DNA of 64,000 nucleotides from Candidatus Sericytochromatia bacterium (GCA_036676455.1 JAKFCW010000101.1:5211-69210), one strand, 5' to 3'. Shown: positions 10,563-45,430, numbered from the stretch's first letter. Numbers and translations: made by a program. Notes: generated by a model not told the origin, from the sequence alone.

Positions 10563-11105
10563 TTACTTGCCGCCGACCACGAAGTTGGGGCCTTCGCCCT
10601 TCCCGTTGTGGATCCAGACGGCGAAGTTGCGAACCGAGACGGTCGCTTCGCGCTGCATGTCGAAGATGTCGACCACGCTGGTGTTGGCGGACTTCCGGTA
10701 CTCGATGGCACCGACGAGGGTCGTGTCGGCCGCGGTGGCCGCGGCGACGCCGGCCAGCGAATTGCCGGCGCGAATGCCCTGGGCGTAGACGTCTCCGCCT
10801 GCTGCGGGAGTACCCGCCGCGCCGCCCCAGGGGCTGGACTTGAAGTCATCCGGACGGTTGCGCTGCCACATGGTGGAGAACTGGGCGGCGGTCGGGTAGA
10901 CGCCGAAGTTCTTGGCGGCAAACTCCTCGGCGGTTGCCGTTGCCGCGTTGACCTTGCTCTGGGCCGCGGTGTTGGCGGCGCTGTTCTTGGCCTGGTTATA
11001 GAGAACCGTGGCGCCCGCGATGACCACGACTCCGATAACGATTGCCAGCGTGACTTCGATCAGGGTGAAGCCGGATTCCGAGTGTTTGAGCCGATTTGCA
11101 GACAT
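10563..11105 (-). CDS. Prepilin-type pilin (candidate major pilin or pseudopilin), 180 aa
   Basis: ATG at 11105 follows AGGAGAGAGAAG. The leader MSANRLKHSES-G|FTLIEVTLAIVIGVVVIAG is the class III signal with the N-methylation motif. SPWGG motif present. The gene is monocistronic with its own terminator. Confidence 0.85.
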   Translation of the reverse strand: MSANRLKHSESGFTLIEVTLAIVIGVVVIAGATVLYNQAKNSAANTAAQSKVNAATATAEEFAAKNFGVYPTAAQFSTMWQRNRPDDFKSSPWGGAAGTPAAGGDVYAQGIRAGNSLAGVAAATAADTTLVGAIEYRKSANTSVVDIFDMQREATVSVRNFAVWIHNGKGEGPNFVVGGK

Positions 11106-11135
11106 CTTCTCTCTCCTACATTGGGGACCTTTCCC

Positions 11136-11144
11136 CATATACCC
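11136..11144 (-). promoter_or_regulatory. Putative -10 element (GGGTATATG on the minus strand)
   Basis: About 30 nt upstream of the pilin ATG. Same motif family as the others. Confidence 0.3.
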
Positions 11145-11197
11145 CTTGGTTGGCTGCCTAAACGCGCGAACCGCGTGAATTCTTGGTGAGCTTCCGA

Positions 11198-11851
11198 TCA
11201 AGGAGCAGGAAGCGGTTCACCAAGCTTTTCCAGGGACCGTTTCGCCACCTCCCGGATGCTCGGGTTGCCGGCCCGGAGGTAGATGGCGCGCCACGTGGCG
11301 ACCGCCAGCTCCGTGCGCGCGCCCCGCTCGTACATGCGCGCGGCGAAGTAGCCGGCCTCGGGCGGAGCGCCCGGGAGCTCTGCTGCGCGCTCGAAGTACT
11401 TGGCGGCCAAGAGGGGGTCGTCGCCAAAGAAGAAGAGGGTCATCCCTGCCTGATAGGGAAACCACCAGTTCGTCGGGTCGTGCTTGGCGCCCTTCGCAAG
11501 GAGGTCCACGGCCTTGAGGGACTCACCCGAATCTCCCAGTGCGAGCGCTCCGAGCTCGTAAGCGGCATGGAAGCGGGGATCCAGCTCGACGATGGCAGAC
11601 AGCAGCGGGTAGAGGTTGTGAAAGTTCCGGCCATGCGTGAGCTGATAGCCCCAGTAGCCGATGAAGCGCAGGTAGAGGGCATCGGCGGCCATGTTCCGGA
11701 AGCCCATGGAGCCCAGTTTCAGCGCGGCGGCCGGCGGCACGGAGAGGAGGCCGGCAGGCCGCGCGGCGGCTTCGGTCTCCCAGCGAACCAGCGAGCCCAG
11801 GGCGCAGCTGCCCGCGACCAGAAGGACGAGGACCGAGCGGAGGGGTTTCAC
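11198..11851 (-). CDS. TPR-like helical-repeat protein, possible lipoprotein (PilF/Tgl-like pilotin candidate), 217 aa
   Basis: GTG at 11851 overlaps the upstream TGA (GTGA). The N-terminus VKPLRSVLVLLVAGSC has a permissive lipobox. The rest is TPR-like (AAYELGALALGDSGESLKAVDLLAKGAKHDP, AAKYFERAAELP, YFAARMYERGART). The 550-aa track ORF 11198..12850 is a read-through of another frame. Confidence 0.55.
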   Translation of the reverse strand: MKPLRSVLVLLVAGSCALGSLVRWETEAAARPAGLLSVPPAAALKLGSMGFRNMAADALYLRFIGYWGYQLTHGRNFHNLYPLLSAIVELDPRFHAAYELGALALGDSGESLKAVDLLAKGAKHDPTNWWFPYQAGMTLFFFGDDPLLAAKYFERAAELPGAPPEAGYFAARMYERGARTELAVATWRAIYLRAGNPSIREVAKRSLEKLGEPLPAP

Positions 11852-12609
11852 GGGAGTTCCTTGCGCGCGAAGATCAGGTTGGCCAGGGTGAGGAGGACGA
11901 CGATCAGGCAGGCTCCGTAGGCGATCGCCCAGAGCCACTGCCCGAGGGCGAAGGTTTCGCCGTAGACCACCTGGTTCTTGAGGTTGAACGTTTCGAGGTT
12001 GGGCAGCCCGTAGTAAATCATGGTCGAGACGGCCTTGGCCACGGGATCCGCCTTCTCGCCGAACTGCTTGATGATCTCCGAGCCGTGCCCCAGGACGTAG
12101 AAGCCCAAGGCATAGAGGATGCTGAGCATGGGCGAGGTCATGGTGGTGAAGAGCATGGTCAGGCCGAGCATGACCATGGCCTCGAGGCCGAAGAGGACCA
12201 AGGGGCCGAGGTAGATCGGCTCGAAGCGGCGGGTGATGAGGGCCATCAGGCCGTAGAAGAGCAGTCCCAGCAGGGCCAGCAGGCACCAGAGCGCGGCCGA
12301 GGAGCCCAGGAATTTGCCCGTGAGGAACTGTCCCCGGGTGATGGGTTTGCTGAGGAGCGTGTAGACGATGCGCTGCTCGAGATCGCGCGAGATCAGGCGG
12401 GAGCCCAGGAAGACGGCGAGCAGGACCAGGAGGGCGTTGATGGTGCCCAGGCCGAAGTCCTGGATGATCTTGAGGTCCGCGCCGGCGGAGAGTCCGCCGA
12501 GCAGGAGGGTGAAGCCGATCAGCAGGGCTCCGAAGAGGGCGGCGACGTGGAGGAGTTTGTCTCGGAGGGCTTCCTTGAGGGTGATGGAGGCAATCGCGAG
12601 CGGGATCAT
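11848..12609 (-). CDS. ABC-2 type transporter permease (NosY/GldF-like), 253 aa
   Basis: Starts MIPLAIASITLKEALRDKLL and has six hydrophobic spans. No cognate ATPase gene is present in this window. Confidence 0.7.
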   Translation of the reverse strand: MIPLAIASITLKEALRDKLLHVAALFGALLIGFTLLLGGLSAGADLKIIQDFGLGTINALLVLLAVFLGSRLISRDLEQRIVYTLLSKPITRGQFLTGKFLGSSAALWCLLALLGLLFYGLMALITRRFEPIYLGPLVLFGLEAMVMLGLTMLFTTMTSPMLSILYALGFYVLGHGSEIIKQFGEKADPVAKAVSTMIYYGLPNLETFNLKNQVVYGETFALGQWLWAIAYGACLIVVLLTLANLIFARKELP

Positions 12610-12614
12610 CTTTC

Positions 12615-13175
12615 CTATTCGACTTCGACCGAGATGGGAACCGTGATTTGCCAGGTGATCGTGCTACCGAACTGGTTGCGGCCCTGGAAGGTGACATTGG
12701 CCTGGACGTCGATCTCGGGAATCTTGCTGCCCGAGTCCGGGTTGGTGGCATCGACCAGCTGGCTCGTGATGATTTGCCCCAGGTTGAGGGAAACCGGCGT
12801 CTCGCCCTGCAGGCGGGCCAGGAAGGGCATGATGGCGGTATCGACGCCATCGATGAAGAGCAGCTCGCCGTTCTCGAAGTCTCCGACCGGCGAGTAGTAA
12901 TCGACCTTGGCCATCTGGAGGTCCACGGGCGAGGAGCCGGGGATCAGCGCGACGCTGAGAACGGGGGCGGTCTTGGAGACCTCGTAGATCACGCTGCCGT
13001 CATCTTGCTCGGTCTGCTTCCAGGCGATCTTGCCCTTGGTGGTGACGGTGCCGTCGATCCCGGAGGTGTTGAGGAGCCCTCGCCAGTAGGAGGCCGTGCA
13101 GCCCGTGGCGAGCAGCATGGAGGCGAGCAGCAGGGTGGCGAGCAGGAGGGAAGGAAGCTTAAGCGGCCGCATCAT
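12615..13175 (-). CDS. Lipoprotein of unknown function immediately downstream of the secretin, 186 aa
   Basis: MMRPLKLPSLLLATLLLASMLLATGC has the lipobox LATGC. The start overlaps the secretin 3' end by 17 nt. The body is beta-rich. Confidence 0.7.
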   Translation of the reverse strand: MMRPLKLPSLLLATLLLASMLLATGCTASYWRGLLNTSGIDGTVTTKGKIAWKQTEQDDGSVIYEVSKTAPVLSVALIPGSSPVDLQMAKVDYYSPVGDFENGELLFIDGVDTAIMPFLARLQGETPVSLNLGQIITSQLVDATNPDSGSKIPEIDVQANVTFQGRNQFGSTITWQITVPISVEVE

Positions 13176-14868
13176 TGACGATCTCCGGAGTGATGAGGAT
13201 CTGAACCTCAGTGCGGGTCTGATCCACGACCGTGCGCTGGAAGAGCCTGCCGAGGAAGGGGATGTCTCCCAGGAGGGGGATCTTCTCGACCGTCTCGCGG
13301 CCGGAGTCCTGGATCAGGCCTCCGATGACGATGGTCTCGCCGTTGAGGACGCGGATCTCCTGGGTCTGGAATTCTCGCTTGCTCTTGAGCGTGGCCAGGA
13401 TGTCCTGGTTCGTCGCGCGCTCTTCCTTGCGCACGACGGAGATGACGGGGTGGACGTTCATGGTGATGCTACCCTGCGGGTCGATCCGGGGAGTCAGCTC
13501 GAGGGTGATGCCGACCTCGTCGAGTTCGACCGTGCGGGTGGTCAGGGTCTGGTTGGCGTTCTGGGTGATGGTGGTGGTGGTCTTGCCGACGATATCGTCG
13601 GTGATCTTGATGATCGACGAGCGGTTGTTCATGGCCAGGACCGAGGGGCTGGCGAGCACCTTCGCCTTGTTCTGCGAGACCAGGGCGTCCAGGGCCACCC
13701 GGAGGTTGGCGGCCTGATTGGTCGCGCTCTCGAAGGTGAAGCGGCCGTTGTCGGGGGAGTTGGTGTCGAAGTCGCCGCTGAACTGCTTGGAGCCGAGGCC
13801 GTAGCTGAGGCCGAGCCGCTGCAGGGCTCCCTGCTCGATCTGGACGATCTGCGTGCGGATCAGGACCTGCGGGGGCTTGCGATCCAGGACCTTCAGGATC
13901 TGCTCGGCCAGGGCCAGCTCCGACTGAGAGCCGACGGCCAGGAGGGCGTTACGGCTGCCGAGCGGGATGAAGCGGGGGGTCTGCTCGCCGATGGCGATGG
14001 TGTCCGTCTTCGTCGCGGGGAGCTGGCCGGGGGCGGTTCCCGCGAAGTCCCGGTAGGTGTTCTTGACGCTGGCGCCGGATCCGCTGCCGCCGGCGCTTGC
14101 TCCGCCAGCCGCCGCTCCGCTTGCCGCTGCTCCGCCGGACGGGGCTGCAGCAGTGGCGGGTGCGTAGAAGCTCGCCTTCAGGACCTCGATGGCCTCGCTG
14201 ACCGTGACGTACGAGAGCGGGAAGACGCGGTTGGGCAGGAGGACGTCCATGCGCTTGACCAGCTGCTCGACGACCTGCACGTTCGCTTCTTGACCCGAGA
14301 CGATCAGCGCGTTGCTGTTGGTGTCCGGGCGAACCTGGGTGGCGAAGAGCTTGGCGGACTCGCCGCCCGCTGCCGTGCCTCCGGAGGATTCGGCCAGGAC
14401 CGATTTGACCATGGTCGCGGTGTTGGCGGCGTTGGCGTAGGACAGAGGGATGAAGCGGATGACCGGGCGGCCGTAGCGGCCGCTGCGGTAGACGACGTAG
14501 GTCGAGCCGATCCGCTGCAGCTCCAGGCCGTTGGAGCTGATCAGGGTCTCGAGGATGTTGTTGAGCGGGGTGTTGAAGAAGTCGAGGTTGAGGTTCGCCG
14601 ACTTCTCGCTCGAGATGGAATCATCGAGCGTCAGGTTGAGGCGCTTCTGCTCGGCGATCAGCTGCAGGGCCTCACGCAGCGAGGTGTCGCGCAGGCGGAT
14701 GGTGAGCTTGTCCTCGCCTCCAGGAACGGAAATCTTGCTCTGGAGCGAGACGCCCTGCGCCATGGCGGGAGCCACGGATATGGCCGGCGCCCAGAGGGCG
14801 AGCAGCAGGGCGATGCTTTTGGTCCACTTTCTCACGCGAGTCCCCCATGGGCTTAAGCTAGGAGTCAT
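13159..14868 (-). CDS. Secretin (PilQ/GspD family), about 569 aa
   Basis: The C-terminal secretin domain ends in VLNGETIVIGGLIQDSGRETVEKIPLLGDIPFLGRLFQRTVVDQTRTEVQILITPEIV. N-terminal N0/N1-like repeats are present (LRDTSLREALQLIAEQ..., VFPLSYVTVSEAIEVLK). Start is ATG at 14868, or GTG at 14835 giving VRKWTKSIALLLALWAPAISVAPAMA. The track ORF start at 15054 is unlikely. Confidence 0.9.
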   Translation of the reverse strand: MTPSLSPWGTRVRKWTKSIALLLALWAPAISVAPAMAQGVSLQSKISVPGGEDKLTIRLRDTSLREALQLIAEQKRLNLTLDDSISSEKSANLNLDFFNTPLNNILETLISSNGLELQRIGSTYVVYRSGRYGRPVIRFIPLSYANAANTATMVKSVLAESSGGTAAGGESAKLFATQVRPDTNSNALIVSGQEANVQVVEQLVKRMDVLLPNRVFPLSYVTVSEAIEVLKASFYAPATAAAPSGGAAASGAAAGGASAGGSGSGASVKNTYRDFAGTAPGQLPATKTDTIAIGEQTPRFIPLGSRNALLAVGSQSELALAEQILKVLDRKPPQVLIRTQIVQIEQGALQRLGLSYGLGSKQFSGDFDTNSPDNGRFTFESATNQAANLRVALDALVSQNKAKVLASPSVLAMNNRSSIIKITDDIVGKTTTTITQNANQTLTTRTVELDEVGITLELTPRIDPQGSITMNVHPVISVVRKEERATNQDILATLKSKREFQTQEIRVLNGETIVIGGLIQDSGRETVEKIPLLGDIPFLGRLFQRTVVDQTRTEVQILITPEIVNDAAA

Positions 14869-14971
14869 GCCGTCATCGGGATGGTAGCAGGAGAGTGAGA
14901 CGCATGGCTGTGAGCGCTGCACGCCTCCCGTACCCGGGAAGCAAAGGCTTGAAACAACCTTGCCTTGAGGA

Positions 14972-15541
14972 TTAATCCCCGATCTCGCCTTCCACCTGGC
15001 CGCCGGTCTTGGCCTGGGCGCCGTTGACGTAGAAGTAGCGATCGCCGTTGGCATCTGCGATGGCGACCGCGTAGAAGCGGGTCTGGGTCTTGATGCCGCC
15101 CTTGGCCAGGTCCGTGAACGTCAGGAAGCCCTCGATGTCCGCGGGGGCGAGCTGGTAGTAGTAGAGGATGCCGGAGTCCCCTACGTTGGAGTCGTGGCTG
15201 GAGTAGTCGTCGCCGCTCAGCGTCCGCCCGCGGATGCCGTCCGCGGTCTCGCCTGCATCGCCTCCGATGGCGGGGCCGCCCCAGGGGCTGACGGCGTAGT
15301 CCAGCGGACGCTTGTTCTTCCAGACCACCCGCAACTCTTCGACCGTGGGGTAATTGCCGGCGTTGGCGACGGCCATGTCCTCGACCGTGGTCTGCAGCGC
15401 GAGGACTCGCTGCCAGGCGTTGGTGTGGCCGGAGTTGTTGCGCATCTGGTTGTACAGGGCCAGGGACGACCCCAAGAGGATAGCGCCGACCACCAGGACC
15501 AGCATGACCTCCGTCAGCGTGAAGCCGTCTTGCCGTTTCAT
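14972..15541 (-). CDS. Prepilin-type pilin, 189 aa
   Basis: MKRQD-G|FTLTEVMLVLVVGAILLG, with an SPWGG motif. AAGGA lies 7 nt before the ATG at 15541. An alternative ATG is at 15556. Confidence 0.85.
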   Translation of the reverse strand: MKRQDGFTLTEVMLVLVVGAILLGSSLALYNQMRNNSGHTNAWQRVLALQTTVEDMAVANAGNYPTVEELRVVWKNKRPLDYAVSPWGGPAIGGDAGETADGIRGRTLSGDDYSSHDSNVGDSGILYYYQLAPADIEGFLTFTDLAKGGIKTQTRFYAVAIADANGDRYFYVNGAQAKTGGQVEGEIGD

Positions 15542-15562
15542 CGGGTGTCCTTTCATGAGGCG

Positions 15563-16102
15563 CTACCTTCCGCTCTGCACGTGGAAGAAGAGGCGCCCTT
15601 GGCCGTTGATCGGTTTGTCGCCGGCGACCATGTAGGCGGTGGCGGAGACCGTCGCTCCGCGTGTGACGTCCCAGAAGTTCGCGGTGCCTGCTGCCCCGGC
15701 ATTGTCGATCCAGATGTAATGGAGCGCTCCACCGGTGCTCGAATCCTTCTCTTCTTCCTCGTAGTGCGTGGCGCCGTGGCTGATGGTCTGGGAGAGGATG
15801 CCCCGGTTGGCCTCGCTCGAGCCGATCACGGGACCGCCCCAGGGGCTGCTCTTGTAATCATCGGGCCGGCGCGCCTTCCAAGCGCTGCGCAGGGTATCGG
15901 GGGTCGGGAAGGCGCTGGTGGGGGCGTAAAGCTCCTCGACGAGCGTGCGGAGATCCTGGACCCTCTGGCGCATCGCGGCGTCTCCGCTCTGATCGCGCAG
16001 GGCCTTGTAGCCGTAGACGGCCGTGCCCGTGAGCAGGATGCCGATCGAAAGGGCCAGGCCCACTTCCATGAGCGAATAACCGCCTTCTTTTTTCCGATCC
16101 AT
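15563..16102 (-). CDS. Prepilin-type pilin-like protein, 179 aa
   Basis: MDRKKEG-G|YSLMEVGLALSIGILLTG, with an SPWGG motif. First gene of the minus-strand pilin-secretin operon. Confidence 0.8.
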   Translation of the reverse strand: MDRKKEGGYSLMEVGLALSIGILLTGTAVYGYKALRDQSGDAAMRQRVQDLRTLVEELYAPTSAFPTPDTLRSAWKARRPDDYKSSPWGGPVIGSSEANRGILSQTISHGATHYEEEEKDSSTGGALHYIWIDNAGAAGTANFWDVTRGATVSATAYMVAGDKPINGQGRLFFHVQSGR

Positions 16103-16158
16103 GCCTGACTCCCTTGCTCCGGCTACTGCCGCTCGTCGCCCGATCCGGCTTCCTCCTT

Positions 16159-16167
16159 ACTATACCA
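16159..16167 (-). promoter_or_regulatory. Putative extended -10 element (TGGTATAGT on the minus strand)
   Basis: About 55 nt upstream of the ATG at 16102, in the divergent intergenic region. Confidence 0.3.
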
Positions 16168-16336
16168 ACCAGCAATGCCCCTCTAACCAAGATGGCCGTT
16201 GGTGACCGATCTCTCAGACAAGCCTGGGGAGATCGGCGATAATCCGAACGGAAATCCAGTCGCCTTCAGCCTTCCGTGGGTTTCAGTCTCCTCGGCAACG
16301 GGTACTTTGTTGCTTGGTTCTGTCGGGATGCGATGT

Positions 16337-16380
16337 GCCCGCGGCTGTTGCGGAAGGCAGCGAAGCTGACCTAAAGCAAC
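16337..16380. repeat. Intergenic repeat, family 2 (copy b, inverted)
   Basis: The reverse complement reads gttgctttaggtcagcttcgctgccttccgcaacagccgcgggc. Confidence 0.7.
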
Positions 16381-16404
16381 GTTTGCGCAAGGAAGAGGCC
16401 TGCC

Positions 16405-17946
16405 TTGTCCAAGCTCTACGAGTGCGTCGTTCACTCGGGAAATGAATTGCGCCGGGAGTCTGTCGAAGCCGACAGCCTTCGGGACGTTCGCGCCATTCTC
16501 CGGGGACAGGGCCTCTTCCCGCTGGAGATCAAGGAGGCGAAGAAGCCGCGCCGCAACGTCATGGCCGAGCTGAAGGCCCAGCTCGCGACCGACAAGACCG
16601 AGCGCGAGGCGCTTCGCGAGAACAGCAAGCAGGCCAAGAAACGCAAGTATTACTTCGAGGCCGTTCCCGTCAACGGCGGTGAGCCGATCCAAGGGGACAT
16701 CATGGCCCCGGACATGAAGTCGGCCCGCCAGATGCTCCGGGATCAGGGGCTGAGCGTGGGACTGCTCGAGGTGAAGCAGTTCTGGCATGACTTCAAGCCC
16801 AAGGATGCCAAGGCCATGCTGCAGCTGGGGGACGAGGCGCGGGCCAAGGCCCCCAAGCGCACGGCAGCGCAGCAGTTCCAGGACCTCTTCATGCGGAAGA
16901 GGGTTCCGATGAAGGCCATGTCCTTCTATGCCCAGCAGCTGGCCACGATGCTGGATGCGGGGCTGTCGATCAACCAGACCCTCGATATCTTGCAGGAGGG
17001 CATCACGGACCCCCGGCTGATGATGATCAACCGGGAGGTCAAGCAGCGGATCATGGAGGGCGTCGGCATGGGCGAGGCGTACAGCACGTTCGACCGCTAC
17101 TTGCCGCCGATCTTCATCGACCTGATCTCCGTGGGTGAGCTCTCGGGTAACGTCGAGGAAACCTTGAAGCGCCTCTCGGAGTACTTCGAGAAGGAGCTGG
17201 AGATCCAGGCCAAGATCAAGTCCGCCCTCTCCTACCCGACCATCCTGGTGGTCCTGATCGTCCTCATCGTGATCGGAATGATGCTCTTCATCGTGCCGAG
17301 CTTCCTGGACCTCTTTGCGGAGTTCAACCTGACCTTGCCTTGGACCACGAAAACCCTGCTGGCCTCCAGCGCCTTCGTCTCCACCAAGTGGTGGACCCTT
17401 CCGCTCTTCGGCGGCGGGGCCTTCGTGGGCTGGCGCTGGTTCAGCTCCACGCGGTTCGGCTCGCTCGTCGTGGACTACTTCGAGTTCAAGGTGCCCTTGA
17501 TCGGCAAGCTCAAGTACAAGGTGCTGATTGCCAGGTTGCTTCACAACCTGGCGCTGATCCTGCGCTGCGGAGTGCCGATCATGGTCGCCCTGGATCAGGT
17601 GCGCCAGGGCGTGCAGAACCGCAACGTCGCCCTGAAGCTGGGCGAGATCCGCGCGGGCGTCGCCCAGGGCGTGCGGGTCGCCACGCTGTTCCAGGCCTCG
17701 GGGTTGTTTCCCCCGTTCATCATCCACCTGCTGGTGGCCGGCGAGGAATCGGGCTCAATCGACGGCTTGCTGGCCAAGGGAGCCAAGTACATGGACGCGG
17801 AGGTCGAGCAGGGAGTGAAGGCCATGACCACGGCCATCGAGCCCATCCTCACCGTCATGGTCGCCGGAACCGTCCTCTTCATCCTGGGCAGCCTCTACAT
17901 GCCCCTCATGGGCCTCATGGGCTCGGGAAGCAAGGTGCCGACATGA
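16405..17946 (+). CDS. Type II secretion / type IV pilus platform protein (GspF/PilC family) with duplicated N-terminal cytoplasmic domain, 513 aa
   Basis: Two T2SSF-like regions are present (FYAQQLATMLDAGLSINQTLDIL..., ARLLHNLALILRCGVPIMVALDQV...) with the usual TM segments. Two copies of the small F-Y/E-x-A...G...A...LR.QGL N-domain are present (YECVVHSGNELRRESVEADSLRDVRAILRGQGLFPLEI and YYFEAVPVNGGEPIQGDIMAPDMKSARQMLRDQGLSVGLLEV). Start codon is TTG. Confidence 0.9.
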   Translation: MSKLYECVVHSGNELRRESVEADSLRDVRAILRGQGLFPLEIKEAKKPRRNVMAELKAQLATDKTEREALRENSKQAKKRKYYFEAVPVNGGEPIQGDIMAPDMKSARQMLRDQGLSVGLLEVKQFWHDFKPKDAKAMLQLGDEARAKAPKRTAAQQFQDLFMRKRVPMKAMSFYAQQLATMLDAGLSINQTLDILQEGITDPRLMMINREVKQRIMEGVGMGEAYSTFDRYLPPIFIDLISVGELSGNVEETLKRLSEYFEKELEIQAKIKSALSYPTILVVLIVLIVIGMMLFIVPSFLDLFAEFNLTLPWTTKTLLASSAFVSTKWWTLPLFGGGAFVGWRWFSSTRFGSLVVDYFEFKVPLIGKLKYKVLIARLLHNLALILRCGVPIMVALDQVRQGVQNRNVALKLGEIRAGVAQGVRVATLFQASGLFPPFIIHLLVAGEESGSIDGLLAKGAKYMDAEVEQGVKAMTTAIEPILTVMVAGTVLFILGSLYMPLMGLMGSGSKVPT

Positions 17947-18380
17947 CGAAATCCCGAGGAATCTCGCTCCTGGAGGTCTCCCTGGCGGTCTCGGTGAGCT
18001 TGATGCTCACGGCGGGCGGAGTCTACGCCTACCGCCAGCACATGCAGTCCACCCGCGTCTCCCAGGCCAAGATCATGCTCGCGACCATGCGCCAGGGGAT
18101 CGAGATGCAACGCTACCGGACCGGGGCCTTCCCGACGGTCGCGTCGATCAGCGTGAACGTGGACGACACCGGCAGGGGGTTCTACGGCAAGGCCGGCTCG
18201 CCCTTGCGCGATCCCCTCAACCCGCCGATGGATGCGGCCGCCTTCTCGCGGATCATCGACTTGACGGCAGCCGCAACCGGCTCTCCCTGGGGAGGATGGG
18301 CGTATCATCAGGGGACGGGCTATCTTGAACCCAACCTGGATCCCGCGGCATTCCCGGGCGATCCGCCGAGTGCGTGGTAG
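17943..18380 (+). CDS. Prepilin-type pilin-like protein, 145 aa
   Basis: The ATG overlaps the upstream TGA (ATGA). MTKSR-G|ISLLEVSLAVSVSLMLTAG, with an SPWGG motif near the C-terminus. The track ORF 17340..18380 carries a spurious 5' extension. Confidence 0.8.
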   Translation: MTKSRGISLLEVSLAVSVSLMLTAGGVYAYRQHMQSTRVSQAKIMLATMRQGIEMQRYRTGAFPTVASISVNVDDTGRGFYGKAGSPLRDPLNPPMDAAAFSRIIDLTAAATGSPWGGWAYHQGTGYLEPNLDPAAFPGDPPSAW

Positions 18381-18392
18381 ACAGGAATAGGC

Positions 18393-20051
18393 ATGGGAGT
18401 GAAGAAGGTAAAACCTTTCGTTGGGCTCTACATCACGGCGGACCGCCTCGAGGCCGCCGTCGTCGGAGGCACGCCTGGCGAGCCCGTCATCGAGACGCAA
18501 TACCTGGCCGAGTTGCCGCCCGATCTGGTCGACGCGGACGGCGCCATCCAGGACGTCGCCGCCCTGGGCGCCGAGCTGAAGCGCTTCTGGAAGGAATCCG
18601 GCCTGCGCAACCGCCGGGTCGTGCTGGTCATCGACTCGCGCAAGGCCCTGCTGCGCCAGATCCGCCTGCCCAAGATGCCGATCAACAGCCTGGACCAGGC
18701 GATCCTGAGTGAGGCCGAGCAATTCGCGCTTTACCGCGACGAAGAGCCGCTGATCGACTACTTCGTGAACGAGCTCGAGCACGAGTTCATCCAGACGACC
18801 TACGGGGTGGTTCCCGAGGAGACCGTGAACGCCTACTCCAAGGCGCTCAAGACGGCGGGCCTGAACCTGATCGCCCTCGATCTCGCCCAGCTGGCGGGTC
18901 AGCGAGGCATGGAGTTCTACCACCCGCTGGAGGACGATCACTGGACGGGCGTCATGGTGCAGCCCCAGCGCCTGATCATCTCGTGCTGGATGGAGCGCCG
19001 CCTCTGGGTCATGCGCGAGATCATCCTGCCGGAGCGCATCTCCCACGACATGGCCATGCTGGCCCAGAGCTACCTGCCCAATATCGCGCACTCGGTCGCA
19101 AGTGACACCAACTCCTTCGACGATCCGCACATGGTGCTGGCCTGCGATCGCTTCGAGGACGCGCGCGTGCTGGCCGATCATGCCAAGAGCCTCCTCGAGG
19201 GCCGCATCAGCATCGCGGGCCCCGGAGAAGATTCCGACGACGACGAGGCCTCGGATCCCTGGGGCGATAGCGTCGACAGCGCCCTCGACGGAGCCTTTGG
19301 CGCGTCGGACGCGCTGGATCCCGAGGATGGCTTCGCGCTGACCGCCACGCTGCCCCAGGCGTCTCCTGGTGCGGACTCCGAGGAGGACGAGGACGGCGAG
19401 GACGACCTGGAGGACGATCTCGACGACGAGGGTCCGCAGATCTCCTATATCGCCCTGGGTGCCGCCCTCTGGGGGCGCCCTGGCGTCGTGCCCTCGCTCA
19501 ACCTCCTGCCCAAGGGCAAGTCCACTGCCAGGACGCTACCCAAGCTCGAGTTCGACCTGGATCGCCGCGTGCTGATGGGCCTGGCGGCGACCCTGCTGGT
19601 CGGCGCCGCCTTGACCGGCTGGCAGATCTGGCAGAAGGGCGAGCGCGAGGCCCAGGTGAAGATCCTGATGCGCCAGCTTGCCGACGCGCAGGTCCAGACG
19701 CAGGGCAACCAGCAGATGATGGACTCCCAGCCTCCCGAGGCAGAGCTGCTCAAGCAGTGGATCCCTCACCTGGAGGAGAACGTCTTCGCCCGCCAGTTCC
19801 TCGAGACCCTGCGCGAGACCACGCCTTCCGACGCCTGGATCTCCAAGGTCACGTACACGGCGGGCAAGGAGATGGTACTCTCGGGTGGGGCCTTAAGCCA
19901 GACCTCCTGCCTGTACTTCGCCGATCAGATCGCTGCCCTGGATCGCGTCCGCCAGGTCAAGATCCTCAAGATTGAGAAGAGCGGCGCCGCCTACACCTTC
20001 GAGATTCAAGCCGGTCTGGGCACGCAGACCGCAGGCCAGGCGCTGCCATGA
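18393..20051 (+). CDS. PilM-PilN fusion (actin-like ATPase fold + acidic linker + TM + PilN-like periplasmic domain; GspL-like architecture), 552 aa
   Basis: The N-terminus VGLYITADRLEAAVV...VVLVIDSRKALLRQIRLPKMP...AILSEAEQF is PilM-like. An Asp/Glu-rich insert follows (GEDSDDDEASD...SEEDEDGEDDLEDDLDDEG). The TM segment is VLMGLAATLLVGAALTGW, followed by a coiled coil and a C-terminal alpha/beta domain. Confidence 0.7.
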   Translation: MGVKKVKPFVGLYITADRLEAAVVGGTPGEPVIETQYLAELPPDLVDADGAIQDVAALGAELKRFWKESGLRNRRVVLVIDSRKALLRQIRLPKMPINSLDQAILSEAEQFALYRDEEPLIDYFVNELEHEFIQTTYGVVPEETVNAYSKALKTAGLNLIALDLAQLAGQRGMEFYHPLEDDHWTGVMVQPQRLIISCWMERRLWVMREIILPERISHDMAMLAQSYLPNIAHSVASDTNSFDDPHMVLACDRFEDARVLADHAKSLLEGRISIAGPGEDSDDDEASDPWGDSVDSALDGAFGASDALDPEDGFALTATLPQASPGADSEEDEDGEDDLEDDLDDEGPQISYIALGAALWGRPGVVPSLNLLPKGKSTARTLPKLEFDLDRRVLMGLAATLLVGAALTGWQIWQKGEREAQVKILMRQLADAQVQTQGNQQMMDSQPPEAELLKQWIPHLEENVFARQFLETLRETTPSDAWISKVTYTAGKEMVLSGGALSQTSCLYFADQIAALDRVRQVKILKIEKSGAAYTFEIQAGLGTQTAGQALP

Positions 20052-21211
20052 ACCAGACCGAGAAGATCCTGATCGCCGTCGCCCTCGTGCTGGCCCTGGC
20101 CGTCCCCGCGGGGATCCATTTCATGGGGGTGAAGGCTGCGGAGGGCAACCTCACGCGCCTGCGCCAGCAGATCGACCAGGCGATGCGCGATCGCGACTCC
20201 AGCGATCGCCTGCTCTCCCTGCGTCAGCAGGAATGGCAGAAGGTCACCACCGAGATCGAGCGTCTCCGGCTCTTCGACCTCCGCAAGGAGGAGCGCTACG
20301 AGACCGTGATGATCAACCGCTCGAACCTCGGGTTGATCGCCCTCTCGGAGATCTTCGAGAAGAACGGCATCGCCATCGACGCCCTGGAGCCCCAGCCCAG
20401 CGAGTACAAGCAGGTGATGATCGCCGAGGCCCCCCAGGCCGGCGTGGCGCGCCGGCGCTACGTGCTTCTGGCCCGGGGCCCCTACCAGAGCCTCTTGAAG
20501 GTCTACGACGCCCTGAAGACCCTGCCTCCCACCCTGGAGGTCAGCGGCTACGAGGTCTCCTACCTCGACTCCAGCGCCCAGCGCGCCACGGTCTCCCTGA
20601 AGCTGGATCTCGCCTTCAACTACCTGCTGACGCCCGAGCAGCTGAACCAGGCCCAGGCCGCCGAGCAGACGCCGGGCGCCGCTCCGCCGCCGCCGATCAG
20701 CTGGCATCCGGGAGAGGCGTGGAAGGTCGTGATGGACTGGGTCATGCCGCCGGCATGGGCGCAATCGCCCGCCCCGGAGAAGCTTTACACCATTCCCGTC
20801 CGCAAGACTCCGCAGATGGGACGTTCGGAGCCCTTCCTGCCGCTGGCTCCCACGGGAACCGAATCCCTGGGGGTCAAGGCCGCGCCGAAGCCCACCTTGC
20901 AGGTTGCCTTGATCGGTGTCTTGCTCGGAGGGGACGGCCTTCCCGGCGCCATTCTCAGCTCGGGCGGGCAGCGGATCCGCGTGCGGCCGGGAAGCGTCCT
21001 GCCCTCTGGAGCCGAGGTGCTGGCCATCGGGGATGGCTACGTGTTGATCCGCTATTCGGGATCCATCCACCGGGTGGGCTTGAGCCGGGACATGCGCGCC
21101 CCGGAGCCGGCGGAGCCGACTCTCGGCGTACCGAACACGCAGCCTCCTCCGATCCCGGGCCTTCCCCTCCCGGGGTCGCCCCTGGATTCCTTGTTGCCGC
21201 GTGGAGAGTGA
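20048..21211 (+). CDS. PilO-like N-terminal half fused to a PilP-like C-terminal beta domain, 387 aa
   Basis: The ATG overlaps the upstream TGA. The N-terminal TM ILIAVALVLALAV is followed by a coiled coil and a ferredoxin-like region (PilO/GspM pattern). A Pro-rich linker leads to LIGVLLGGDGLPGAILSSGGQRIRVRPGSVLPSGAEVLAIGDGYVLIRYSG (PilP / GspC-HR-like). Confidence 0.55.
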   Translation: MNQTEKILIAVALVLALAVPAGIHFMGVKAAEGNLTRLRQQIDQAMRDRDSSDRLLSLRQQEWQKVTTEIERLRLFDLRKEERYETVMINRSNLGLIALSEIFEKNGIAIDALEPQPSEYKQVMIAEAPQAGVARRRYVLLARGPYQSLLKVYDALKTLPPTLEVSGYEVSYLDSSAQRATVSLKLDLAFNYLLTPEQLNQAQAAEQTPGAAPPPPISWHPGEAWKVVMDWVMPPAWAQSPAPEKLYTIPVRKTPQMGRSEPFLPLAPTGTESLGVKAAPKPTLQVALIGVLLGGDGLPGAILSSGGQRIRVRPGSVLPSGAEVLAIGDGYVLIRYSGSIHRVGLSRDMRAPEPAEPTLGVPNTQPPPIPGLPLPGSPLDSLLPRGE

Positions 21212-21215
21212 GCTG

Positions 21216-22994
21216 ATGGAAACGAACGAACGGGCTCTGATCCCGACCAACCAGATCGAACGCCGGCAGACGCAAGACGGCCCCATCAAGAAGCTCCGCG
21301 TCGGCGAGTGGCTCAAGAGCCTCGGCTTCATCTCGGAGTTCCAGCTTTCCGAGGCCCTGACCATCCAGATGGAGACGGGCAAGAAGCTGGGTGAGATCCT
21401 GGTCGCCAAGGGCTATGTCGCCGCCAAGGAGCTGCAGGAGATCCTCAACCTGCAAGAGGTGCTATCCAGCAAGTCCACGCTCGCTGATTTCGTGGTCGAT
21501 GCGGGAATCCTGGCCATGGTGCCCGAGACCTTTGCCCGCCAGCACCTGGTCATTCCCCTGGTCAAGGTGGGCCGCCGCCTGGTCGTGGCCGTGAACCGCG
21601 CCGACGACACCAAGCTGCTCGACCATCTTTCGCTTCTGACGGGCCACTTCATGGTGCCCCTGGCCTTCCGCAAGGAGGACCTCGAGGGCGCGCTCACGAC
21701 GTTCTACGACAGCCGCCACCGCAGCAACACCAGCGCCATCGAACGGGCCATCAAGTCCGGTACCCATGAGACCGGGCAGCCGCAGCGCCAGGTCCAGGAG
21801 ATCAACGCGACCGGCAACTCCGACGCTCCGATCATCGAGCTGGTCAACGCCATGCTCTCCGAGGCGGTCGAGCGCGGGGTCAGCGACATCCACATCGAGC
21901 CCCGCGAGACCTTTATGGAGATTCGCTTCCGGATCGACGGCGTCCTCAGCAAGTACCTGGACGTTCCCAAGGCCATCGAGAACTCCGTCGCCACTCGCCT
22001 CAAGGTCCTGGGCAACATGAACATCACCGAGAAGCGCCGCCCCCAGGACGGCCGCTTTGGGGCCAGCTTCGCGAACGGCGAGAAGGTGGACTTCCGCGTC
22101 TCCTCCATCTCCACCCACTGGGGCGAGAAGCTGGTCCTGCGCCTGCTGCGCCAGAAGTCCATCGCGCTCGGCATGGAGAAGCTCGGCTTCGAGGAGGACC
22201 ATGCGAAGCTGATCGATCGCCTGCTTCACAGCCCCACGGGCATCATCCTCGTCACCGGCCCCACGGGTTCGGGCAAGACCACGACCCTATACGCGGCCCT
22301 GCAGAAGTTCGATCGCGAGACCGACTCGATCGTCACGATCGAGGACCCGGTCGAGTACCCGGTGGAGGGCATCGCCCAGATCGGCATCAACAACAAGATC
22401 GACCTCAACTTCGCCGGGGCCCTGCGCACCATCCTGCGCCAGGATCCGGACGTCATCATGCTCGGTGAGATCCGCGACCACGAGACCCTGGAGACCGCCA
22501 CCCACGCGGCCATGACCGGCCACCTGGTGCTCTCGACCCTGCACACGAACGACGCGGTCTCCACCGTGGGCCGCATCGTCGAGATGGGGATCCCCCCTTA
22601 CGTCGTCTCCTCGACGGTGATGGGAGTCATCGCCCAGCGCCTGGTCCGGAGGATCTGTCCGGGCTGCACCGAGGAGTACGAGGCCACGCCTGAGGACCGC
22701 GCCTTCCTGGGAGTCGCCCCGGATCGCCCCCTCACTCTCGCGCGCGGCAAGGGCTGCGACCTCTGCAACATGACCGGCTACAAGGGTCAGCTGGGCGTCT
22801 ACGAGATCCTCATGATCTCCCGGCCGCTTCAGGCGATCATCAACCGGGGAGGCTCGACCATGGAGCTGGCCGAGGAGGCCCACAAGGGCGGCTTCCGCAC
22901 GATGATCTTCGACGCCAAGCGCAAGGTCATCCGACGGATGACCAACGTTCCCGAGGTCATCCGCGTGCTGGGTTACGGCACCGACGGCTTCTAA
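21216..22994 (+). CDS. Type II/IV secretion assembly ATPase (GspE/PilB family), about 592 aa
   Basis: Contains an N-terminal T2SSE_N-like helix pair (LGEILVAKGYVAAKELQEILNLQ), Walker A GPTGSGKTTT, an Asp box / Walker B DPDVIMLGEIRD, a His box GHLVLSTLHTN, and a tetracysteine motif CPGC...CDLC. An alternative GTG start is at 21201. Confidence 0.92.
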   Translation: METNERALIPTNQIERRQTQDGPIKKLRVGEWLKSLGFISEFQLSEALTIQMETGKKLGEILVAKGYVAAKELQEILNLQEVLSSKSTLADFVVDAGILAMVPETFARQHLVIPLVKVGRRLVVAVNRADDTKLLDHLSLLTGHFMVPLAFRKEDLEGALTTFYDSRHRSNTSAIERAIKSGTHETGQPQRQVQEINATGNSDAPIIELVNAMLSEAVERGVSDIHIEPRETFMEIRFRIDGVLSKYLDVPKAIENSVATRLKVLGNMNITEKRRPQDGRFGASFANGEKVDFRVSSISTHWGEKLVLRLLRQKSIALGMEKLGFEEDHAKLIDRLLHSPTGIILVTGPTGSGKTTTLYAALQKFDRETDSIVTIEDPVEYPVEGIAQIGINNKIDLNFAGALRTILRQDPDVIMLGEIRDHETLETATHAAMTGHLVLSTLHTNDAVSTVGRIVEMGIPPYVVSSTVMGVIAQRLVRRICPGCTEEYEATPEDRAFLGVAPDRPLTLARGKGCDLCNMTGYKGQLGVYEILMISRPLQAIINRGGSTMELAEEAHKGGFRTMIFDAKRKVIRRMTNVPEVIRVLGYGTDGF

Positions 22995-23059: not shown

Positions 23060-24205
23060 TCACGCGGTCGGCTCGCGCCGCCGTAGCAGCCGTGCACTCC
23101 AGGCGGTGACGAGCAGCGTGGCGACCATGCCGATCAGGCCGGATTCCCAGGCCAGCATCACCGAGACGAAGTAGTCGTAGTTGAAGAGCCGAACCAGCGA
23201 GACCTTGATGGAGGTCACGTCGCCCAGGCGTGTGATCAGCAGCAGGGAGAGCGAGAGCCCGAAGTACATGAGGCCGGTGCCAATCGCGAGTGCAGGCAAG
23301 ACCTTGCGGCCTTCCCGTAGGCCGGCTTCCAGAGCGTCCTCCTGCGGGTGTTGGGTGATCGCCCGCGCTGTCACCAGGCTCGCCAAGATCAGCCCCCCGA
23401 GAGTGGTCAGGACGGACCCGGCCAGCCAGAGCTGGCGGTAGTCGAGCGTGCGGGACTGGTTGACCTGCGTGTACAACACCAGGGCATCCGGGGTCGCGAG
23501 CCCGCTGACGTGTCCGGTCGCGTAGGCGATCGCCATGACGGCAATCGTTACGACCAGCCCCGCTCCCAGGCCCAGCATGGCGGCTCGAAGTGCCGTCGAA
23601 CGCTTTTCCAGTGCGAGGCGGAGGGCGCCCAGGCCGATGGCCAGGCCAGCGAGGCCGCTCAGCGCGGCCGGAGAAACGCCGCGGATCAAGAGGGGGAGCA
23701 CGACGACGTAGAGCCCGCCGAAAACCGCGATGACCATGGCCAGGGCCTTCAGGCCTGCCTGCCGGCCGACCAGCAGCAGGGCCAGGGCGCTCAGGGCCGA
23801 AACCCAGGCCAGGGCTGGCCGGCGGTCGTAGTCGACCACCCGGTAGAGCATGCGCCCATCGGAGAGCCGGCTTTCGGCCACGATGACTCGCTCACCGAGG
23901 CGCGGATCGACATCGACGCTGGGGTTGCCGAAGAGGTAGTGCTCGACCGTGACGCGCTGGCCGTGGTGTGCGCCGCTCAGCAGCTCGACCGTCAGTGAGA
24001 GCTGGGGAGGCTCCTGGAACAGCCCGCCTGGCATTCGCGGGAGAGCGTCCGGGGCGAACGTAGCGGGGATCTCGACGATCACGCCCGATACGTAGGTTTC
24101 CGCCCCCTGGAAGAGCTGGATCGGCATGTGGGCCTGGGCCTCGCGGGGCATGAGCGCCGCGAGCAGGACGATCGCCAGGGCGATCAGGGCTCGGAGGAGG
24201 CTCAT
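23060..24205 (-). CDS. YibE/F-like integral membrane protein, 381 aa
   Basis: ATG at 24205 overlaps the upstream TGA (ATGA). The order is an N-terminal signal/TM, a ~130-aa extracytoplasmic beta domain (QLSLTVELLSGAHHGQRVTVEHYLF...YRVVDYDRRPAL), then 6-7 TM segments, which is the YibE/F arrangement. The 962-aa track ORF is a frame read-through into the upstream gene. Confidence 0.6.
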   Translation of the reverse strand: MSLLRALIALAIVLLAALMPREAQAHMPIQLFQGAETYVSGVIVEIPATFAPDALPRMPGGLFQEPPQLSLTVELLSGAHHGQRVTVEHYLFGNPSVDVDPRLGERVIVAESRLSDGRMLYRVVDYDRRPALAWVSALSALALLLVGRQAGLKALAMVIAVFGGLYVVVLPLLIRGVSPAALSGLAGLAIGLGALRLALEKRSTALRAAMLGLGAGLVVTIAVMAIAYATGHVSGLATPDALVLYTQVNQSRTLDYRQLWLAGSVLTTLGGLILASLVTARAITQHPQEDALEAGLREGRKVLPALAIGTGLMYFGLSLSLLLITRLGDVTSIKVSLVRLFNYDYFVSVMLAWESGLIGMVATLLVTAWSARLLRRREPTA

Positions 24206-26796: not shown

Positions 26797-26870
26797 CGTC
26801 ACCCCCTGTGTCGCGACTGTCGTGACCCGCTGGCCACCCCTTGGTTCTTATTCCCGCCGGCGAGCGATCG

Positions 26871-27965
26871 TTACGGGACGAAGACGTGGACCCGGTGGCC
26901 CGTCTCGTCCGTCACCCAGAGCCGGCCGCCCGGAGCGAAGGCCAGGCCATGGGGCCGTAGGCCGATGGTGTAGTTCTTGACGAATGCGCCCGACGCGTTG
27001 AACTTCTCGACCTTCCCGGCGGCCGGGACGCTGACCCAGGCGTTGCCGGAAGCGTCGATGGCCATGTCCGCGGGGGCGCCGCTGAGCCCCCGGTTCAGGG
27101 TCTCGTCCGTCGCGGGGTCGATCCGCCAGACGCTGTTGCCGCTGTGGTTGAGCACCCAGATGGCGTCCGCGGACGCGCGGATCACGCCGGGGTTGCTCCC
27201 GACGGGGATCGTGCGATCGGGGTTGCCCTGGCCGTCGTAGACCTCGACCCGGTCATTCTCCGTGTCGGTGACCCAGATCTTCCCGCCATGAACGGCGACT
27301 CCGCCGGCGGCGAGGGTGGCGACGGACTGGGTCGCGTTGTTCTGGGTTGCCAGCTTGACGAGGGCGCGAGCGCCCTCCAGGGCCACCCAGAGGTTCCCGT
27401 CGTTGTCCGCGGCGAGATCGCGGGGGCCGGCGCCGACCTGGACCTGGGACATGGTTCCGCTGGCAGTGAACTTGGTGAGGGTGTTGCCGGAGCGATTGGC
27501 CACCCAGATGTTGCCCGACTTGTCGGCCACGACCGCCGAGGGAGCGTCTCCGGTCGGCGGGTCGCCGAGGAGCTGGCCGGTAGAGTCGACTTTTGCCACG
27601 TTCCCGGACTCGTTCAGGGCGACCCAGGCGTTACCGCTCCAGTCGAAGGCCAGGCCGCGCGGGTCGCCGTACCCGATGGTGACGGCGAAGGCGACGCTCT
27701 CGGAGGGAGGAGGCGTCGGGGTGGGCGTGGGCGTGGGAGTGGGGGAGGCGACCACGGGAGGCGGGCTCTCCTGGCCGCCGATGTTGCCGCCGAGGTTGCT
27801 GCCGTCGGGAGTTGGCGTGCTGCCGTCCGTTCCGGACGTGCCGCCGGGTCGGGTGCCGGTGCGGCCTCCGATGAGCAGACTGTCATCCTCGGCACAGCCC
27901 ACTCCGATCATGGTGAGGGCGAGCCCCAGGGCCACCGCGGAAATCAGCTGTCGGCTCGCGACCAT
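26871..27965 (-). CDS. Lipoprotein: S-type leader (GCAEDDSLL) + Pro/Thr linker + single NHL-type beta-propeller, 364 aa
   Basis: The leader is LALTMIGVGC-AEDDSLLIGG and the linker is [13 protein letters not shown]. About six repeats of the G-N-(I/L)-W-V-A pattern follow (GNAWVALNESGNVAKV, GNIWVANRSGNTLTKF, GNLWVALEGARALVKL, GKIWVTDTENDRVEVY, DAIWVLNHSGNSVWRI, GNAWVSVPAAGKVEKF, GRLWVTDETGHRVHVF). Confidence 0.8.
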   Translation of the reverse strand: MVASRQLISAVALGLALTMIGVGCAEDDSLLIGGRTGTRPGGTSGTDGSTPTPDGSNLGGNIGGQESPPPVVASPTPTPTPTPTPPPSESVAFAVTIGYGDPRGLAFDWSGNAWVALNESGNVAKVDSTGQLLGDPPTGDAPSAVVADKSGNIWVANRSGNTLTKFTASGTMSQVQVGAGPRDLAADNDGNLWVALEGARALVKLATQNNATQSVATLAAGGVAVHGGKIWVTDTENDRVEVYDGQGNPDRTIPVGSNPGVIRASADAIWVLNHSGNSVWRIDPATDETLNRGLSGAPADMAIDASGNAWVSVPAAGKVEKFNASGAFVKNYTIGLRPHGLAFAPGGRLWVTDETGHRVHVFVP

Positions 27966-28004
27966 CGCTCCTCCAAGACCTCAAGCGCCGGGATTGCTGG
28001 GGAG

Positions 28005-28013: not shown

Positions 28014-28044
28014 CCTGCCCGTCTGGCATAAACAGGCGCATGGT

Positions 28045-45422: not shown

Positions 45423-45430
45423 GAGGACCC

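Follow-up and report, generated by a model that had tools for sequence, protein, structure and literature searches.

The question raised by positions 10,563 to 22,994 of a 64,000-nucleotide stretch of DNA from Candidatus Sericytochromatia bacterium (GCA_036676455.1, JAKFCW010000101.1:5211-69210; the whole stretch is called the window below) is which type IV filament (T4F) machine its genes encode and what that machine would build. To our knowledge, the Sericytochromatia, a non-photosynthetic sister lineage of the cyanobacteria, have no cultured members, and a literature search found nothing on pili, type II secretion systems (T2SS), PilT or secretion in this group. A first-pass annotation, made from the DNA alone, had listed in this interval a secretin, a GspE/PilB-type ATPase, a GspF/PilC platform protein and four pilins, with the alignment subcomplex condensed into two genes. 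All of these components were found where it had placed them, and the two condensed genes were borne out as fusions by sequence comparison, AlphaFold2 models and Foldseek: the structure predictions that it had proposed for them, together with fold and sequence searches, returned similarity to PilM, PilN and PilO and to the homology region (HR) domain of GspC. As predicted from its genes, the cluster encodes a complete T4F machine, a prepilin peptidase excepted. The interpretation that we favor, with about even confidence, is a lineage-specific (Sericytochromatia-type) machine derived from a pilMNOPQ-type ancestor resembling the type IVa pilus (T4aP), in which adjacent genes were fused pairwise and the output is a surface pilus.

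The PilM-PilN fusion

The gene at 18393..20051 (+) encodes a protein of 552 aa, referred to here as MN. Its N-terminal 278 residues constitute a PilM-like actin fold, as evidenced by matches to PF11104 (PilM_2; 4.7e-7), TIGR01175 (6e-13, below the cut-off) and Thermus PilM (2ych; 2e-13). The C-terminal part contains a PilN-like ferredoxin fold (residues 469-545; 19797..20027), which matched PF05137 with an E-value of 1.3e-4 and a score of 22.4 bits, below the gathering score of 22.8, and for which precomputed Pfam matches exist in homologues. Between the two domains are (i) an acidic insertion at residues 279-348 (19227..19436), (ii) the last PilM helix followed by a PilN 'SLNLLP' motif at residues 349-373 (19437..19511), (iii) a moderately hydrophobic transmembrane (TM) segment at about residues 392-413 (19566..19631), and (iv) a coiled coil C-terminal to the TM segment. 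In an AlphaFold2 model calculated from a 12-sequence family alignment both domains were confident and the region between them was disordered; the pLDDT was about 90 at residues 351-370. Foldseek ranked PilM first (2ych, 2e-18; P. aeruginosa PilM, ~1e-17), then FtsA, with the cytoplasmic domains of GspL/EpsL at 5e-8, and the GspL model TIGR01709 scored 24 bits (cut-off 65). The architecture had initially been equated with that of GspL of the T2SS. The domain plan is indeed the same, and GspL is itself regarded as a PilM plus PilN fusion, the T2SS counterpart of these two proteins (PMC4471445; PMC10191384), but the sequence signatures of MN resemble those of PilM and PilN.

To locate the boundary between the two modules, the E. 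coli HofM, HofN, HofO and HofP proteins served as references; no literature on an 'INLLP' motif was found. When concatenated HofM and HofN were aligned to the MN family, the C-terminal helix of HofM, 'IALGLALGKAY', fell on 'ISYIALGAALWGR' (residues 349-362), and the N-terminus of HofN, 'PPINFLPWR', fell on 'VPSLNLLPKGK', so that the HofM/HofN gene junction aligns between 'IALGAALWGR' and 'SLNLLP' of MN. From this alignment the junction of the M and N modules is placed at about residue 365, just before the retained PilN 'NLLP' motif, in which S368, N370 and L371 are invariant throughout the MN family. In systems with separate genes, it is the N-terminus of PilN that PilM binds (PMC4471445; PMC6916266). 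The acidic stretch comprises 70 residues, 29 of them Asp or Glu and none Lys or Arg, and it is variable, being short or absent in more distant MN relatives. Since the C-terminal helix of HofM aligns beyond it, the stretch has to be read as an insertion that interrupts the PilM module ahead of the last helix. The first-pass annotation had described it as an acidic linker of ~70 aa joining a PilM-like to a PilN-like part; the fusion and the acidic stretch are both real, but the stretch lies within PilM and does not connect the two modules.

The PilO-PilP/GspC-HR fusion

The next gene, at 20048..21211 (+), encodes a protein of 387 aa, here called OP. It begins with a TM segment (residues 7-29) and a long coiled coil, followed by a PilO-like fold (residues 84-194; 20297..20629), a conserved 'WxMPPAWAQ' motif (residues 231-239; 20738..20764), a 'GRSEPFLPL' motif (residues 258-266; 20819..20845) and an HR beta domain (residues 281-345; 20888..21082). 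The alpha/beta domain was recognized as PilO by fold only, with Foldseek matches to PilO of M. xanthus (3jc8_O; 3e-5) and of P. aeruginosa (2rjz; 2e-4). The beta domain, which is preceded by a low-confidence linker in the AlphaFold2 model, superimposed on the HR domain of GspC (3oss_C; TM-score 0.84, rmsd 2.5 A, 31% identity), and its sequence matched T2SSC (3e-5; 24.2 bits, just below the gathering score of 27) and OutC (6hcg; 4e-5). Fold and sequence searches thus agree with the initial description of the gene as a PilO/GspM-like half joined to a PilP/GspC-HR-like beta domain.

Alignment of concatenated HofO and HofP to OP placed 'GMRDPFKP' of HofP on the invariant 'GRSEPFLPL', and the signal peptide of HofP on the conserved 'W(L/V)MPPAWAQ', which has an A-x-A-like end. 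The latter motif may be what is left of a signal peptide from the time when pilP was a gene of its own. In both the MN and the OP family, the motif residues that align with HofM/HofN and HofP are invariant. Because MN keeps the C-terminal helix of PilM together with the PilN 'NLLP' motif, and OP keeps the 'R-D/E-P-F' motif of PilP, the two proteins look, by these sequence features, less like orthologues of GspL, GspM and GspC than like pilM-pilN and pilO-pilP joined head to tail.

Distribution of the fusion proteins

Both fusion families are very small: a search of 5.8 billion sequences retrieved only 21 relatives of MN, all of them fused, and 28 relatives of OP. An exhaustive profile search with OP against 1.84 billion representatives likewise yielded 28 proteins at E<=1e-10, most of which were matched over both halves; below this threshold there were weak matches only, mostly short proteins matching the HR end alone. 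A locus scan using one genome per species resulted in ten loci (L001-L010), annotated as Candidatus Sericytochromatia (six), Tanganyikabacteria (one), cyanobacteria by name (two, one of which is a 5-kb contig labelled Stenomitos) and an unclassified metagenome-assembled genome (one). A further variant, L011, keeps the core of platform, MN, OP and ATPase. The order of the 12 genes of the cluster, including the genes for a permease, a lipoprotein and a helical protein, is conserved across about 11 loci, ten of them labelled as Sericytochromatia, Tanganyikabacteria or other cyanobacterial assemblies, in which the identity of the ATPase ranges from 92% down to ~50%. By these labels, too, the window would almost certainly be assigned to a genome of Sericytochromatia type. 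OP is longer in distant relatives and yet still fused, with 599 aa in L005 and 953 aa, including a weak AMIN match, in L011. It is worth noting that this last protein (JAKFEW010000021, 7076..9937) combines a weak AMIN match with a T2SSC match in one polypeptide; AMIN, which is peptidoglycan-binding and usually located on PilQ, may sit on the scaffold protein instead.

The source is evidently metagenome-assembled, and the fusions could in principle have arisen from assembly or gene calling, for instance by frameshifts merging adjacent genes. This explanation is scarcely credible: the fused frames recur in independent sequence clusters (21 for MN, 28 for OP) that come from different samples and sources and whose identity goes down to 30-35%, and third-position GC is uniformly high along both open reading frames (ORFs). 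An assembly artefact was rejected on the grounds that the fused frames are conserved in so many independent assemblies.

ATPase, platform protein and secretin

The extension-type ATPase (21201..22994, +; 597 aa) matched T2SSE with an E-value of 3e-127 and contains an MshEN region and a CPGC...CDLC zinc (tetracysteine) motif. The MshEN motif occurs as a tandem pair at residues 31-85 (21291..21455), and the protein passed the cyclic di-GMP (c-di-GMP)-binding domain model NF053729 (55.5 bits, cut-off 38); the ATPase is probably c-di-GMP-regulated, as judged from these motifs. It aligns end-to-end with the PilB model. Neither the PilB model TIGR02538 (538.9 bits, cut-off 675.65) nor that of GspE (534 bits, cut-off 630) was reached, and comparison of the core with structures in the PDB resulted in a tie between Geobacter PilB (375 bits) and Vibrio GspE (365 bits). 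In a neighbor-joining tree (385 core columns, 200 bootstraps, references from plasmid records), the ATPase family of the cluster was monophyletic with 100% bootstrap support, and four bona fide proteobacterial GspE proteins formed a separate clade (98%) that excluded it. There was no supported grouping with the sampled PilB sequences. The nearest neighbors outside the family are Clostridia-type PilB proteins, with 40-44% identity over the full length and ~46-50% in the core; a homologue from Acaryochloris, with 44% core identity, does not group with the family. The phylogenetic placement proposed in the first-pass annotation hence sets the ATPase apart from proteobacterial GspE without putting it inside the PilB clades.

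The platform protein of the GspF/PilC family (16405..17946, +; 513 aa) contains two T2SSF domains (1.4e-48). Its N-terminal motif is present twice, at residues 5-44 (16417..16536) and 83-124 (16651..16776), with 33% identity between the copies and a pairwise E-value of 8e-5, in line with the two tandem copies of the N-terminal cytoplasmic domain noticed earlier. The GspF model aligns only from residue 84 onward. No relative lacks either copy; even the most divergent, L011, has both, and a precomputed Pfam 'T2SSF_N' match is on record for its platform protein. The hidden Markov model (HMM) scores, which lean to the T2SS, were 288 bits for GspF (cut-off 424) and 262 bits for PilC, both below their cut-offs; the PDB matches lean to PilC.

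The secretin (13159..15054, -) matched Pfam Secretin (2e-40), two Secretin_N domains and, weakly, STN. Its ORF extends to 15054, and the likely start is Met63 at 14868, which would provide a signal peptide. A domain scan of the protein detected no AMIN domain and no C-terminal S domain. The scores were 201 bits for GspD (cut-off 351), 184.9 bits for PilQ TIGR02515 (cut-off 284) and 127 bits for MshL (cut-off 250), all below cut-off, and the PDB comparison favored GspD (6i1x, 120 bits) over PilQ (89 bits). On these sequence scores the secretin leans to the T2SS.

Pilin-like genes

The cluster encodes four pilin-like proteins (A-D), which share N-termini of the form G-(F/Y/I)(T/S)L(I/T/M/L)E, the hyphen following the conserved Gly, and a common SPWGG motif. 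Gene A (10563..11105, -) encodes 180 aa from MSANRLKHSESG-FTLIEV, with a Pfam N_methyl match of 2.5e-6; it is a paralogue of B and C with an RPxDY..SPWGG motif and is conserved in L001, L005 and L008. Gene B (14972..15556, -; RQDG-FTLTEV) matched N_methyl (2e-7) and TIGR02532 (3e-6), and gene C (15563..16102, -; EGG-YSLMEV), a paralogue of A and B, gave weak prepilin HMM matches. Gene D (17943..18380, +; SRG-ISLLEV, 145 aa), with weak N_methyl/ComP matches and a prepilin HMM match of 8.6e-5, has a start that overlaps the stop codon of the platform gene by 4 nt; it is syntenic in L001-L005, L007, L008 and L009 and was not detected in L006 and L010.

The count of four pilins given by the first-pass annotation is correct for the cluster. 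The window as a whole has seven such genes, since three more are found at 46062..47537 (-), embedded within an array of large lipoprotein genes. Reading of the sequence identified the first of these (47055..47537, -; ERG-NTLLIVMV) as a minor-pilin-like gene without Glu5 (GNTLLIVMV), like GspK/PilX, and it has no HMM match. The second (46646..47068, -; QQG-FSLLEA) matched N_methyl (8e-6) and the PilV model TIGR02523 (5e-6, below cut-off). The third (46062..46646, -; QKG-MSLLET, 194 aa), again minor-pilin-like and read from the sequence, has a weak prepilin match. Minor pilins without Glu5 also occur in T4aP (PilX-type). Matches of the pilins to the GspG and GspH-K pseudopilin HMMs were driven by the N-terminal helix alone, and no GspG-like major pseudopilin was detected among the pilin-like genes, the best score being 20 bits against a cut-off of 88.85.

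Organization of the cluster and accessory genes

As judged from ORF listing, third-position GC and family scans, two divergent operons fill 10563..22994; the G+C content is ~67% across the window. The leftward operon (-) reads pilin C, pilin B, secretin, lipoprotein, ABC-2 permease, 220-aa helical protein and pilin A, and the rightward operon (+) reads platform, pilin D, PilM-PilN fusion, PilO-PilP/GspC fusion and ATPase, with genes that overlap by 4 to 11 nt or are separated by a 12-nt gap. They are divided by an intergenic region of ~300 bp (16103..16404, no strand), where the gene layout leads us to presume the promoters. Promoter-like matches and terminator scans in the intergenic region and window gave chance-level frequencies, and no riboswitch or other RNA in the window matched Rfam.

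Three accessory genes are conserved members of this 12-gene cluster. Directly downstream of the secretin is a lipoprotein gene (12615..13175, -) whose product, a candidate pilotin, has an LLATGC lipobox read from the sequence and no family match in domain scans; a homologue exists in L001 and L003, and L008 has a lipoprotein at the equivalent position. The ABC-2 family permease (11848..12609, -; PF12679, 9e-11; ~6 hydrophobic segments) has no ATPase partner in the cluster and is conserved in the secretin operon of L001, L005 and L008, distant relatives included. The third gene (11198..11860, -) encodes a conserved protein of 220 aa that has a hydrophobic segment at its N-terminus; the gene is found in synteny in L001, L005 and L008, at 45-84% identity. 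Its TPR/Sel1 matches were weak (E 0.15-1.3); a TPR identity is not significant at these values, and the protein was therefore not named PilF, PilW or MshN.

A tblastn search with the cluster ATPase identified no paralogue or other second T2SSE-type ATPase in the 64-kb window, and Pfam scans found no Peptidase_A24 (prepilin peptidase) match on any of its sizeable ORFs, which agrees with the earlier remark that PilT and PilD are missing from these 64 kb. This absence carries little weight because T4aP genes are normally scattered over several loci, with the peptidase modelled as a stand-alone 'loner' gene (PMC6668835).

Flanking genes

At least 10 large lipoproteins (~720-1300 aa) are predicted in the region 24202..64000, built of CarboxypepD_reg-like, TIG and NHL/beta-propeller parts. 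Two subfamilies alternate, in most cases as tandem pairs, each recognizable by a conserved sequence after the cysteine, 'ACPRPLxPP...PEL*' and 'SC(R/K)LPSL(L/V)P...P(R/V)F*'. Directly after the ATPase gene of L001 comes the same pair, and L002 and L011 too have large lipoproteins beside the cluster; such neighbors are absent in L003, L005, L006, L008 and L010. A consistent linkage between cluster and array was rejected, as it holds in the window, L001, L002 and L011 only (4 of ~11 loci).

Several other genes of the window are mentioned for completeness. A small lipoprotein ORF at 45431..45971 (+) shares the motif 'GCAEEDGL(I/F)GVG' with a second small lipoprotein ORF, and in an NHL-repeat protein (26871..27980, -) the lipobox is followed by a similar motif. 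The gene immediately upstream of the cluster, 8466..10448 (+), encodes a 660-aa protein whose N-terminal region is weakly Cache-like and which also comprises a TM segment and a very long coiled coil; it is conserved in the closest relative, L001, alone. At 535..1844 (+), two overlapping or tandem ORFs each contain a SET (lysine methyltransferase-type) domain (1e-14 and 4e-12). SET domains are uncommon in bacteria.

Proposed assembly and alternative explanations

From the module identities and their conservation, and by the assembly logic of homologous machines, we infer subunit contacts, 1:1 stoichiometry, c-di-GMP control and a pilus as the output. The seven prepilins would be cleaved at their conserved Gly by a prepilin peptidase encoded elsewhere. 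In the cytoplasm, the PilB-like ATPase, a hexamer, would have two docking sites, the PilM module of MN and the platform protein. Within MN a covalent bond links PilM to PilN, whose 'NLLP' peptide is probably bound in cis, and through this link the cytoplasmic ring would, we propose, be held at the membrane in a fixed ratio of 1:1. On the periplasmic side, the PilN-like domain of MN would pair with the PilO-like domain of OP. The HR domain at the C-terminus of OP would extend to the N0 domain of the secretin and so connect the motor in the inner membrane with the pore in the outer membrane, likewise at 1:1. The platform protein, driven by ATP hydrolysis that binding of c-di-GMP to MshEN probably switches on, would add pilins to a fiber that minor pilins have primed and that passes through the secretin. 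The most likely output would be a surface pilus of one SPWGG pilin, the main alternative being a short pseudopilus that pushes out cargo.

Several observations weigh against a pilus of T4aP-like descent. No component reaches an NCBIfam equivalog cut-off for T4aP or T2SS; the secretin and platform score slightly higher with the GspD and GspF models, and the secretin is without AMIN; the HR domain of OP had no PilP match and was matched to GspC by both HMM and fold; no pilin resembles a known major pilin beyond the N-terminal helix in the PDB comparison; the deeper nodes of the ATPase tree have 4-36% support; no pilT was found anywhere in the 64 kb, nor up to 10 kb from the cluster in the ~11 related loci; and a single-locus layout is more typical of T2SS or the mannose-sensitive hemagglutinin (MSH) pilus than of T4aP (PMC6668835). 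Another reading is a T2SS-like exporter, in which a short, non-retractile SPWGG pseudopilus, tipped by the minor pilins encoded at 46-47.5 kb, would push folded periplasmic or lipid-anchored proteins through the secretin, the likely cargo being the neighboring NHL/TIG lipoproteins, by analogy with the Klebsiella T2SS, which secretes the lipoprotein pullulanase. We consider such an exporter possible but doubtful. The GspC-like HR domain, the secretin closest to GspD, the GspF model as the best HMM of the platform, the single locus with no pilT nearby, the lipoproteins flanking the cluster in some loci and a minor pilin without Glu5, as in GspK, all fit it, and the T2SS did arise from T4aP via loss of PilT and a PilM-PilN fusion (PMC10191384). 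Yet the lipoproteins are missing beside the cluster in five loci, the Glu5-less pilin has its counterparts in T4aP, a GspG-like pseudopilin was not detected, the equivalog cut-offs of GspE, GspF, GspD and GspL were all missed, the ATPase family is excluded from the clade of proteobacterial GspE, and MN and OP keep signatures of PilM, PilN and PilP that are not known from canonical GspL and GspC. The suggestion in the first-pass annotation of a secretion-type pseudopilus machine is hence a possible reading as far as the T2SS-leaning matches and the lipoprotein neighbors go, and the T4aP-like signatures speak against it.

A more specific version, in which the exporter is independent of the proteobacterial T2SS or branched off before it, was caught mid-transition and is dedicated to surface placement of the paired NHL/TIG lipoproteins, appears unlikely. 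The same low probability attaches to the mid-transition state itself, with a GspL-like PilM-PilN fusion still carrying 'NLLP', PilO and PilP fused, and the HR domain and secretin already GspC/GspD-like. We regard as improbable a specialized adhesive, non-retractile pilus, MSH-like or otherwise, that is controlled by c-di-GMP and would function in surface attachment or in forming biofilms, not in motility or secretion. The two tandem MshE-type motifs of the ATPase, above the cut-off of their model, and the possibly TPR-like accessory protein are consistent with it, and the MSH system is likewise a single locus without PilT (PMC6668835; PMC10191384). On the other side, the secretin fits MshL worse than GspD or PilQ, no MshM or MshN homologue was detected, the TPR signal is not significant, and MSH has been reported only in a few Proteobacteria (PMC10191384).

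If the cluster does encode a T4aP-derived machine with pairwise fusions, a diderm can make do with two polypeptides in place of the four-protein PilMNOP scaffold; M:N and O:P would be fixed at 1:1, in support of equimolar-ring models; and the retained PilN and PilP motifs would be a natural example of how a GspL-type protein arises from PilM plus PilN. It would also be the sole T4F system that we found described or detectable for the Sericytochromatia. Should the exporter origin be true instead, the cluster would represent a second T4F class in cyanobacterial relatives and a living model of the T4aP-to-T2SS transition. The general understanding of T4F machines is unchanged. The cluster is an unusual variant of a familiar machine rather than one of a new kind.

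Comparison with known systems

With T4aP the cluster shares the same modules in the order M-N-O-P, a PilM-like actin fold for which PilM is the best Foldseek and PDB match, the PilN 'NLLP' and PilP 'R(D/E)PF' motifs, a PilO-like fold, a full-length PilB-type ATPase with MshEN, and a secretin. It differs in having both fusions together, a secretin gene that lies in a divergent operon rather than downstream of the P module and that encodes no AMIN, an HR domain closer to GspC than to PilP, a duplicated platform motif, an acidic insertion in the PilM module, no pilT nearby, equivalog HMM cut-offs that are all missed, and a conserved ABC-2 permease and lipoprotein. PilM, PilN and PilO are considered T4aP-specific, and each fusion is known in T4aP (PMC6916266; PMC3169554): PilM is fused with PilN in the T4aP of C. 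difficile (PMC6916266), and PilO-PilP fusions, such as P. putida Q88CU9, have been used to argue for 1:1 stoichiometry (PMC3169554). Given these precedents, the fusions are not hallmarks of the T2SS.

The likeness to the T2SS consists of the GspL plan of MN (an actin-like domain in the cytoplasm, a TM segment, and a ferredoxin-like domain in the periplasm), a GspC-type HR domain, GspD-like N-domains in the secretin, a single locus and the lack of a detectable retraction ATPase. GspC with its HR domain is mandatory in the TXSScan model of the T2SS (PMC6668835). In contrast to the T2SS, the cluster has no GspG-like pseudopilin, the cytoplasmic domain of MN is much nearer to PilM than to GspL, and the ATPase falls outside the proteobacterial GspE clade; the HR domain, although GspC-like, is fused to a PilO/GspM-like protein, preceded by the PilP-type motif, and without a PDZ domain or coiled-coil tail. 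The MSH pilus resembles the cluster in the c-di-GMP motif of the ATPase and differs in its secretin score and in MshM and MshN, neither of which was matched in HMM scans. Cyanobacterial T4aP belong to the same phylum-level lineage (Cyanobacteriota) and are the same general machine, with a pilMNOQ cluster, pilP elsewhere and pilB-pilT-pilC in addition (PMC12288463). The Oxyphotobacteria, however, keep M, N and O separate beside pilQ and encode a long PilP elsewhere, and the nearest outside relatives of the cluster ATPase are not cyanobacterial.

Overall, the PilM, PilN and PilO modules and the full-length ATPase plan look T4aP-like, and the HR domain leans to GspC of the T2SS. The view that the system is neither a textbook T4aP nor a textbook T2SS thus holds, with every core component below both equivalog cut-offs and the best matches mixed. 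Neither fusion is new in itself; what is new is the occurrence of both together in a diderm, along with the duplicated platform motif, the acidic PilM insertion, the conserved accessory genes and the Sericytochromatia lineage.

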